Shown in pieces: positions 48,590-49,960 of a DNA stretch of 64,000 nucleotides (positions are counted from its first letter, which is position 1; every line of letters starts with the position of its first letter). The position numbers and the translations under genes are program-made. The notes under the pieces are model-generated. The model was given only the letters and a program-made list of their open reading frames with translations. It made no database searches and was not told the DNA's origin. This DNA comes from Escherichia phage vB_EcoP_SU10: sequence record NC_027395.1. The stretch is one strand, 5' to 3'.

Positions 48590-49960
48590 TTAGTTATTTG
48601 TTTCTACGTCAAAAGAGATTCCACGACCCGCTTCATCAGCAAACCGAACTGTACGGGTTTGAGGTTCTAATACTTCAGGGTTGTTAGTAATAAAGCGATC
48701 AGCGAGACTGCGGCTGACAGCCTCAGCGAGTTCCTCATGAGAAGGAGTATCAAGATCGGAGAGACTGCCTACCACATCTTGGGCCACACCTTCATCAGTC
48801 CACACAGCCCTAACAGGTGCGTTGATATCACCAACAGCGAAACCCTGACCAGAGAACTGACGTGCACTAACGTTGAAGCCGTTTGGTCTACCACGAGAAG
48901 GACTAGCCATCCATCTCTCCATAGAATCACTTGTAATACCAAGAGCTTCTTCAAAAGATGTTCTACGAGTAGGGCTTACTCTTCGTGACTCTTGTGCTCG
49001 ACGCATTGCAGGGGCTACAAACACCCCTTCAATTGCATTGTGTCGGTTAGGTTCCTCTTCTCGACCAAGCAGATCACCACCCGTGTTAGTCGTTAAATTT
49101 GTCAACCCCTCAGACCAATACGCATGAATCTGACCAGAACCGTGAAGACTAGACATAATCTGAATCTCTTCATAAGGGATTCCAAAGAATCGACTCATGT
49201 CTCGGTTGACACAATATAGAGCACTTGTTGTATCTTCAATAAGAGAAACCTGACCTAATCCATTGACTAGATGACTAACTGGCTGAGGTGTGGGAAGATA
49301 TCGAGTTTGGGCCATGTATTGATGTGCAACTGCTGGAGAGGAAAATCTCAACACTTGTGAGTTAGGCCACTTCTTGTGAACATACCTGATTTCACGACTA
49401 GAGACAACCACTGGACAAGGGGAAGTCATAGCCAAATATCCGTGAGAAGTCATGAATAAGTTGTCAAGAGTCATCGCACCACGGCACATCATAGGAAAAT
49501 TATCCAATACCTCTTCAATAGAAGTAGGATAATTAAACATGAATTGGATACGAACCCCATTCCACTGAAACTCAATAATATCAGTGAATGTTAATTGAGA
49601 ACCCCCAGCATAGGATTCGTTTGTAGCTTCAGCAAGAAGTGATGCATATTCAATATCTTGTGACTCTAGCCATTCCTTCACATTACTTTCAATCTCCCGT
49701 CCAAGCTCTTGCCAACGATCAGTTGGGATGAAAGTGTTTTGAGTTCTTGGTGTTTGTCCTCTGACAATAAAGATATCAATGTCATGTGGAGCTATGTTAT
49801 TAAGGACAGCATCACGAACAGCCCCACCAGTAATGATGGGACAGATACCATCTGGAATCAAGTTGTTGTTAATCAACTGTTCAATGAAGTGACGACCAAC
49901 AGTGATATCAGGTTGTTGAGCAACCTTATCTTCAATTTGGTTAATCGGGATAACAATCAT
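48590..49960 (-). CDS. CCA-adding-enzyme/poly(A)-polymerase-family nucleotidyltransferase head with a long unknown C-terminal region (456 aa)
   Basis: ATG at 49960. ITGGAVRDAVLNNIAPHDIDIFIV matches the GGxVRD...DxD signature of class-II nucleotidyltransferases. The last 200 or so aa are unrecognised. Confidence 0.6.
   Translation of the reverse strand: MIVIPINQIEDKVAQQPDITVGRHFIEQLINNNLIPDGICPIITGGAVRDAVLNNIAPHDIDIFIVRGQTPRTQNTFIPTDRWQELGREIESNVKEWLESQDIEYASLLAEATNESYAGGSQLTFTDIIEFQWNGVRIQFMFNYPTSIEEVLDNFPMMCRGAMTLDNLFMTSHGYLAMTSPCPVVVSSREIRYVHKKWPNSQVLRFSSPAVAHQYMAQTRYLPTPQPVSHLVNGLGQVSLIEDTTSALYCVNRDMSRFFGIPYEEIQIMSSLHGSGQIHAYWSEGLTNLTTNTGGDLLGREEEPNRHNAIEGVFVAPAMRRAQESRRVSPTRRTSFEEALGITSDSMERWMASPSRGRPNGFNVSARQFSGQGFAVGDINAPVRAVWTDEGVAQDVVGSLSDLDTPSHEELAEAVSRSLADRFITNNPEVLEPQTRTVRFADEAGRGISFDVETNN

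Follow-up and report, generated by a model that had tools for sequence, protein, structure and literature searches.

A candidate minimal nucleotidyltransferase encoded beside the replisome genes of phiEco32/SU10-like coliphages is related by profile comparison to the anti-Gabija protein Gad2

What use does a podophage of Escherichia coli have for a nucleotidyltransferase (NTase) that carries the nucleotide-binding motif of CCA-adding enzymes and poly(A) polymerases and is encoded in the midst of its DNA replication genes? The question is raised by the minus-strand gene at positions 48590 to 49960 of a 64,000-nucleotide stretch of Escherichia phage vB_EcoP_SU10 (NC_027395.1), referred to as the window, whose genome type is that of Kuravirus, Gordonclarkvirinae (phiEco32/SU10-like E. 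coli podophages). The gene is the orthologue of phiEco32 gp73 and corresponds to SU10 CDS74, labelled 'nucleotidyltransferase' in RefSeq. The observation itself is not new, as the gene has been annotated and discussed in two papers (PMC4281155, PMC11990801); new in this analysis are the connection with Gad2, the limits of core, hairpin and tail, the family signature and the recurrent replication-module context. Profile comparison places gp73 in the wider Gad2 family, in a phage Gad2/PHROG-1614/PHROG-12715 clade of the Pol-beta superfamily, and this assignment of family and architecture is considered highly probable. With regard to function, we lean, with somewhat less than even confidence, towards an active minimal Gad2-type NTase that is made with the replisome and probably serves counter-defence, its target being a host factor or the end of a nucleic acid. 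The counter-defence role taken alone is more doubtful.

Yirmiya et al. described Gad2 as the second of their anti-Gabija proteins; its deletion renders SPbetaL7 fully Gabija-sensitive, a Brevibacillus homologue restores resistance of SPbeta to Gabija, and SPbetaL7 Gad2, for which AlphaFold predicts an NTase domain, is toxic on expression in bacteria (10.1101/2023.05.01.538930). The NTase regions of nine published Gad2 homologues, taken from Supplementary Table 10 of that preprint, were aligned and compared with gp73 and its relatives. In hhalign, a 120-sequence family profile matches the nine homologues with Prob 98.6% and E=1e-15, and a profile restricted to Gordonclarkvirinae matches them with Prob 89% and E=2e-6 over 137 columns, corresponding to residues 21-199. 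In both alignments GG and DxD are in register, as are the strand with IQ, the motif F..C and the helix with R..K-aromatic; FPMMCRG of gp73 faces FDFTVCMG of the Gad2 homologues, and YVHKKWP faces their R..KY..KGY. The family profile also matches the verified Brevibacillus Gad2 homologue (E=5.7e-7). The precomputed Pfam label PF26128 'Gad2' is found on the small relatives P0049 and P0081 at E<=1e-5 and, graded 'weak' at E<=1e-3, on the Kuravirus orthologue P0016, which is 86% identical. Among the matches listed, the Gad2 homologue tables contain no phiEco32 or Kuravirus entry. SPbeta-like phages were not found by tblastn with a 397-amino-acid relative, the Gad2 profile matched no solved structure in the PDB, and a literature search found no paper naming both Gordonclarkvirinae and Gabija.

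The gene and its parts are as follows; counts of conservation, here and below, refer to a 120-sequence sample of cluster representatives, and pLDDT is the predicted local distance difference test of the structural model.

48590..49960, minus strand: complete NTase gene, 456 amino acids plus stop (open reading frame (ORF) list, phrog_12715 match, start and stop context).
49286..49960, minus strand: putative catalytic NTase core, residues 1-225, with a class-II-like Pol beta fold of Gad2 type.
49769..49828, minus strand: motif A, GGAVRD-x9-DIDIF, residues 45-64 (GGAVRD 45-50, DIDIF 60-64), read from the translation.
49610..49612, minus strand: Y117, a tyrosine conserved family-wide (109/120 representatives) in a flexible loop (pLDDT <50).
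49535..49555, minus strand: central beta-strand VRIQFMF with the signature residue Gln139 (Q in 108/120, D or E in 7/120).
49478..49498, minus strand: FPMMCRG, residues 155-161, family motif F-[DP]-x3-C-[KR] (F155 in 108/120, C159 in 103/120).
49364..49384, minus strand: YVHKKWP, residues 193-199, the end of the conserved helix closing the core, invariant in Gordonclarkvirinae.
49148..49222, minus strand: helical hairpin specific to the gp73 clade, residues 247-271, DMSRFFGIPYEEI (AlphaFold2 helices 247-259 and 263-271).
48593..49108, minus strand: C-terminal tail, residues 285-456, rich in R, E, A, G and S, predicted to be disordered (pLDDT <50 throughout), with few short conserved motifs.

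Motif A combines the G-G plus R-D turn that binds the nucleoside triphosphate (NTP) with two metal-binding aspartates, D60 and D62. G45, G46, D60 and D62 are present in all 120 representatives, and R49 and D50 in 118. The earlier note, made from the sequence alone, had placed this signature at about residues 40-75, where the translation indeed contains it; the catalytic head is not restricted to that segment, the folded core instead spanning residues ~1-225, for which the predicted model is confident except in loops 71-76 and 113-121. Pairwise ratios of nonsynonymous to synonymous substitution rates (dN/dS) are 0.07-0.11 in the core. Because the four motif A residues are invariant and dN/dS is low, the core is under strong purifying selection and is likely to be catalytically competent. 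The remaining conserved positions define a family signature: Y117, Q139, F155-x3-C159 and K197-W-P, the last in the general form K197-[YFW]-P (K197 in 104/120 and P199 in 99/120 representatives). Residue 156 is D in 85/120 and P in 28/120, most small relatives having F-D and the gp73 clade F-P. Judged from strand order, Gln139 would occupy the place of the third carboxylate of many NTases. The Pfam alignment would bring E104 close to the strand with the third carboxylate of class II enzymes; E104 was nevertheless dismissed as a candidate for catalysis, its segment being absent or variable in much of the family.

Similarity to the CCA-adding and poly(A)-adding enzymes exceeds chance and is statistically significant only around motif A. 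The Pfam PolyA_pol head (PF01743) scores 18.9 bits (E=0.002) against gp73, failing to reach its gathering cut-off of 23 bits, and 13.5-21.9 bits against the orthologues. The family profile matches CCA-adding enzymes in the PDB with E=1.7e-7, over only ~45 residues around motif A. In hhalign, it aligns with E. coli Cca over 59 columns (E=8e-5) and with PAP I over 39 columns (E=1e-5), both alignments stopping past motif A. Class II enzymes recognise the ribose and choose between C and A by means of RRD (motif B) and EDxxR (motif D). Both motifs are absent in gp73 and in the 120 relatives, which have FPMMCRG and SREIRYVHKKW as counterparts, and none of the neck, body and tail domains of class II enzymes is found in the protein, in agreement with the earlier note. 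The Gad2 profile is collinear with the A-adding enzyme 4wby, in a non-significant alignment that pairs FDFTVCMG with DFTINA of motif B and P-x-x-x-LRV-KY with the helix of motif D (EDPVRILRALRF). FPMMCRG thus appears to be the positional counterpart of motif B (RRDFTxNA) minus its two arginines. These comparisons suggest that the family derives from a class II head plus the first neck helix, with loss of the arginines and the ED..R residues by which class II enzymes recognise ribose and base. On Pfam score, motifs B and D, and neck, body and tail, gp73 falls outside the CCA-adding enzymes and poly(A) polymerases and is best described as a putative minimal class-II-like NTase. An NCBIfam scan of the protein gave no match, and a single-protein sequence search of the PDB gave a chance match only. 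In the fold search, the nearest folds are those of enzymes modifying polymer ends, namely class II tRNA nucleotidyltransferases and poly(A) polymerase, with CD-NTases and OAS more distant.

The core is not peculiar to these coliphages. An exhaustive profile search of 1.84 billion cluster representatives retrieved 520 relatives at E<=1e-3, counted as clusters at 50% identity, of which 21 with E <1e-30 make up the gp73 clade. A word-indexed homologue search had retrieved only relatives of >=79% identity, and its profile version few. The core usually stands alone as a small protein, since 70 of 119 sampled relatives are <=250 amino acids long (median 230 amino acids). The small relatives fall in PHROGs 1614, 10174 and 7967, labelled 'nucleotidyltransferase' or unknown, and structural matches to them are found in BFVD with E down to 1e-8. 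The description of gp73 as a head fused to a large unknown region therefore does not hold: the core alone is a protein of ~170-250 amino acids in many phages, and the rest is a hairpin and an indel-rich tail. The single C-terminal region of ~380 amino acids supposed in the earlier note likewise splits into the rest of the core (to ~225), the hairpin (247-271) and a disordered segment (285-456).

In the structure prediction, which the note had called for, the hairpin is predicted as folded, residues 285-456 remaining below a pLDDT of 50. The hairpin block has a pLDDT of ~88-91, and its motif recurs in relatives at 30% identity. When three Gordonclarkvirinae genera are aligned, dense conservation extends to YVHKKWP and is followed by scattered invariant residues and large indels, total lengths being 426, 437, 456 and 490 amino acids. 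Within Kuravirus, the tail has a mean identity of 86%, with a mean of 15.5 reference positions deleted. Pairwise dN/dS is 0.14-0.25 in the linker and hairpin and 0.30-0.36 in the tail; on the latter values the tail is still coding and constrained, though loosely. The low complexity reported for the C-terminus was confirmed. The tail is genus-specific and not a large unknown domain.

The limits of the gene itself required attention at the 5' end. The mechanical ORF call, opened by GTG, is 48590..50017 (minus strand), whereas ATG 49960 gives a product of 456 amino acids and 50.9 kDa. The true start is ATG 49960, because it sits 1 nt past the TAA of the upstream exonuclease gene and is the annotated start in all relatives compared. 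From this start, phrog_12715 is matched over its full length (positions 1-457 of 457, E=9e-265), with phrog_1614 also matched, and Kuravirus orthologues are 85-97% identical to the product in amino acid sequence. The closest DNA match of the region is vB_EcoP-CHD5UKE1 (99.1% over 4.4 kb). As 96 of the 98 phage records whose DNA matches the region encode the protein, the NTase gene is a core gene of phiEco32-like phages. Mass spectrometry of SU10 preparations has revealed the protein, which was assigned to the early gene products (PMC4281155). Inside the 3' end of the exonuclease gene and just upstream of the NTase start, at 49973-50002 (minus strand), there is a sigma-70-like promoter match, TTGACC-18-TATATT (10/12), and the SU7 GenBank record has a predicted promoter annotated at the equivalent place. 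In promoter and terminator scans, the number of matches in the region was at chance level.

The immediate neighbours of the gene are the following.

49962..50519, minus strand: upstream, the 3'-5' exonuclease subunit of a family A DNA polymerase (Pfam DNA_pol_A_exo1, 35.3 bits; PHROG exonuclease-subunit families).
48047..48580, minus strand: downstream, dCTP deaminase, starting 9 nt after the NTase stop (Pfam DCD, E=3.6e-34).
50513-52303: primase/helicase.

ThyX, PhoH and PolA are encoded further downstream, so that the embedding in a replication cluster described in the earlier note is borne out by identified genes. The genes for primase/helicase, PolA 3'-5' exonuclease subunit, NTase and dCTP deaminase follow one another in this order, with stops and starts that overlap or abut, in phiEco32, Nieuwekanaalvirus, Suseptimavirus and metagenomic relatives in which the NTase is 30-36% identical. 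The NTase gene is thus co-located with replisome genes and, to judge from the gene layout, probably co-translated with them. A search for related loci with one of the alignments (A5) confirmed almost only phiEco32-like phages. Among more distant phages, the small NTase lies between primase/helicase and DNA polymerase in Ralstonia phage BOESR1 and Bordetella phage BB8, and its gene overlaps an exonuclease gene in Pseudomonas phage Ab22. In viral-contig loci of small relatives, searched by phmmer with 13 replication-protein queries, a primase/helicase, PolA or exonuclease gene lies within 8 kb in 23 of 36. The nearest replication gene is on the same strand and within 1 kb in 19 of these 23 loci; about one in eight would be expected on random placement within +/-8 kb.

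Several other features of the surroundings were recorded. The family A DNA polymerase is split, the exonuclease subunit (49962-50519) lying by the primase/helicase and an exonuclease-less polymerase at 39483-41327 (minus strand), ~8.6 kb away. A 109-amino-acid protein encoded at 43952-44281 (minus strand) contains only domain Ia of NAD-dependent ligases (PF22745 Nlig-Ia, E=2e-35). The phiEco32 annotation calls this protein 'DNA ligase', but it is unlikely to act as a ligase alone, because it has neither adenylation nor OB domain. Just downstream of the dCTP deaminase gene, three tandem paralogous ORFs (47228-47437, 47437-47646 and 47646-47843, minus strand; 69, 69 and 65 amino acids), corresponding to phiEco32 gp69-71, have in common a core, TRxxARxxKK, and Y-Y/H-Y at the C-terminus. 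The stretch 52523-59933 (minus strand), upstream of the replication genes, holds a gene cluster for GGACT gamma-glutamyl cyclotransferase, an ATP-grasp-like protein, glutamine amidotransferase, amidoligase and COOH-NH2 ligase, and this cluster is kept in distant relatives (locus L005). In two metagenomic contigs with the small relative P0081 (L010 and L011), the NTase gene is followed by genes for an AAA_28 protein and a GTP cyclohydrolase I type 2 (PF02649), a single case; genes of the AAA_28/PF02649 type are often tied to 7-deazaguanine pathways. Four IMG/VR contigs have permuted transfer-messenger RNA (tmRNA) genes (L029 and L030, 4689-5123; L032, 3151-3552; L041, 4140-4574), which lie ~3 kb upstream of the gene for a small Gad2-like NTase and may represent prophage ends at ssrA or phage-borne tmRNAs.

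How might such a protein act? In the reading we tentatively prefer, the NTase would be made together with the replisome through translational coupling to the exonuclease gene, and Mg2+ bound by D60 and D62 would allow a nucleoside monophosphate to be moved from an NTP or a deoxynucleoside triphosphate to a hydroxyl. This hydroxyl would belong to the end of a nucleic acid or to a host factor that the enzyme meets while phage DNA is replicated, and the disordered tail, with the hairpin, might tether the enzyme to a partner. Gad2 is the only family member tested, and by analogy with it the most likely role would be to shield replicating phage DNA from nuclease-based immunity such as Gabija. A number of points weigh against this proposal. 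Gad2 is a remote relative: its pairwise BLASTP comparison with gp73 gives no significant match, the PF26128 match on the Kuravirus protein is only 'weak', and neither BLASTP nor hhalign aligns the C-terminal region of Gad2 with gp73 beyond the core. SPbeta Gad2 does not have the R-D of GGAVRD and its C-terminal domain is not shared, suggesting that the substrates of the two proteins may differ, and the mechanism of Gad2 is listed as unknown in a 2026 review (PMC12904381). The chemistry may also differ from the standard two-metal polymerase reaction, since there is no strictly conserved third carboxylate, Q139 being found instead. The enrichment of replication genes around the small relatives (23 of 36 loci) is an indication only, as the query set was small and the loci are partly related and not independent. 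Finally, gp73 is a core gene in a fixed position, whereas anti-defence genes are usually sporadic and in accessory loci, as is Gad2 in SPbeta; the context therefore agrees just as well with a housekeeping role in replication or nucleotide metabolism.

Alternatives that place the protein in RNA metabolism take their strength from motif A. The earlier note had put repair of tRNA 3' ends first among its options, the enzyme restoring CCA ends cut by host acceptor-end nucleases or servicing a phage tRNA-Arg. Motif A is indeed closest to that of CCA-adding enzymes, and this phage type carries one tRNA-Arg(UCU) gene. However, this gene, the only tRNA gene of the closest complete relative, encodes its own CCA and lies in a part of the genome outside the window, in which a scan confirmed the stated lack of tRNA genes, and the host has Cca. 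In addition, gp73 has neither the EDxxR neck template residues nor RRD nor a tRNA-binding body or tail, its alignment with Cca stops past motif A, and no more than 3 of 36 viral loci have a tRNA gene within 8 kb of the related NTase gene. Bona fide phage tRNA nucleotidyltransferases are grouped apart, in phrog_2244; small relatives match this family marginally, and it is not among the PHROG matches of gp73 at E<=0.01. Repair of tRNA is thus the least supported of the options and very unlikely. Tailing of RNA 3' ends in the manner of a poly(A) polymerase, with RNA primers or the transcripts of host or phage as substrates, would find a use for the arginine-containing tail as an RNA-binding part, as in PAP I, which has a disordered basic C-terminus, and GGAVRD is the NTP-binding motif of RNA-specific class II enzymes. 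In contrast, the tail of gp73 is net acidic (charge -8) and the isoelectric point (pI) of the whole protein is 4.9, compared with 9.7 for PAP I; the ribose-reading arginines of motif B are absent, no RNA-binding domain is present and the neighbours are DNA replication genes, not RNA-processing genes. We consider RNA tailing unlikely. It is less likely still that gp73 makes or consumes a small nucleotide-derived molecule, for example one keeping a nucleotide-sensing nuclease such as GajA inactive, with no polymer end involved. A minimal core with no nucleic-acid-binding domains, acidic in 92/120 relatives, the presence of CD-NTases and OAS among the more distant fold neighbours, and the reported response of Gabija to nucleotide levels would all agree with such an activity. 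The nearest folds, however, modify polymer ends, PADLOC defence models, including those for CD-NTases and defence signalling, gave no match to the protein, and the acidic pI is no guide, as the head of E. coli Cca is acidic too; for the same reason, acidic pI was dropped as an argument against nucleic-acid substrates.

The remaining alternatives concern phage DNA and the resistance of these phages to restriction. Gordonclarkvirinae resist the restriction-modification (RM) systems tested with no known modification or anti-restriction genes, and for the NTase locus Humolli et al. (2025) propose DNA modification, such as DNA containing deoxyuridine (dU) (PMC11990801). The NTase and the adjacent dCTP deaminase would then build or install a covalent modification giving dU-containing or otherwise altered DNA. 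The adjacency of the two genes is strictly kept, and the window retains 36 EcoRV, 11 EcoKI and 101 EcoP1 sites, so that the reported resistance is not a matter of site avoidance; against second-order Markov expectations for the whole window, EcoRV (36 observed, 20 expected), EcoKI (11 and 7) and EcoP15 (95 and 52) sites are not avoided. Other palindromes are strongly avoided, with CCWGG observed 5 times against 99 expected, GATC 134 against 295, PstI 0 against 21, BamHI 0 against 11 and KpnI 1 against 14, which suggests present or past exposure of the DNA to type II enzymes and argues against modification. ThyX is also encoded, and dCTP deaminase with ThyX is an ordinary route of dTTP supply for which the NTase is not needed, while small relatives occur in T7-like and LUZ24-like phages with no adjacent dCTP deaminase. 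To our knowledge, no phage base-modification pathway uses a class-II-type NTase. DNA modification is therefore considered improbable, if somewhat less so than the RNA-based and small-molecule alternatives. The last option of the earlier note, nucleotidylation directed at protein or DNA, fits better than tRNA repair, because of the Gad2 homology and the recurrent adjacency to replication genes. A specific form of it, in which the gp73 clade would be a replisome-tethered Gad2-type enzyme that caps or tails ends or nicks of replicating phage DNA and is the source of Gordonclarkvirinae nuclease and restriction resistance, appears about as unlikely as RNA tailing. If it were true, the small relatives between the primase and polymerase genes of T7-like phages would do the same, and a widespread enzymatic mode of counter-defence would exist within phage replication modules.

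By profile comparison, the NTase core of Gad2 is part of a much larger phage family, one branch of which is a core gene of the replication module in common, therapeutically used phiEco32/SU10-like coliphages. A vaguely annotated 'nucleotidyltransferase' becomes a concrete candidate for which hosts and test phages (BASEL Bas90 SkaterBoy and Bas91 LorandFenyves, 98-99% identical here) exist, and which is one of only two candidates in the literature for the unexplained restriction resistance of these phages. Should the link to Gad2 fail, the gene would be an ordinary uncharacterised phage enzyme.

Among known systems, gp73 was compared with three groups. With class II tRNA nucleotidyltransferases and PAP I it shares motif A, GGxVRD-x9-DxD, and the preceding helix; it differs in its sub-threshold Pfam score (18.9 against 23 bits), in having no RRD, EDxxR, neck, body or tail, and in a Gln on the central strand where those enzymes have an acidic residue. 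With the small phage NTases (Ralstonia BOESR1, Bordetella BB8, Pseudomonas Ab22 and Aeromonas phiAS7) it shares the core, the signature residues and the type of neighbourhood, next to an exonuclease gene or flanked by primase/helicase and DNA polymerase, whereas these proteins are only 170-250 amino acids long, hairpin and long disordered tail both being absent. With Gad2 of SPbetaL7 and its homologues it shares an N-terminal NTase core, likewise encoded by phages, whose motifs are collinear (I-A-G-G, D-x-D-[IV]-[FY], the [IL]-Q central strand, F-D/P-x3-C and R..K-[YW]), although Gad2 of the SPbeta type has I-T-S where gp73 has V-R-D. Both proteins carry a variable C-terminal extension beyond the core; that of Gad2, ~230 amino acids, does not appear by sequence to be of low complexity, whereas the gp73 tail is predicted to be disordered. 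Gad2 is encoded in a variable anti-defence locus of SPbeta and gp73, in contrast, by a core gene of the replication module.

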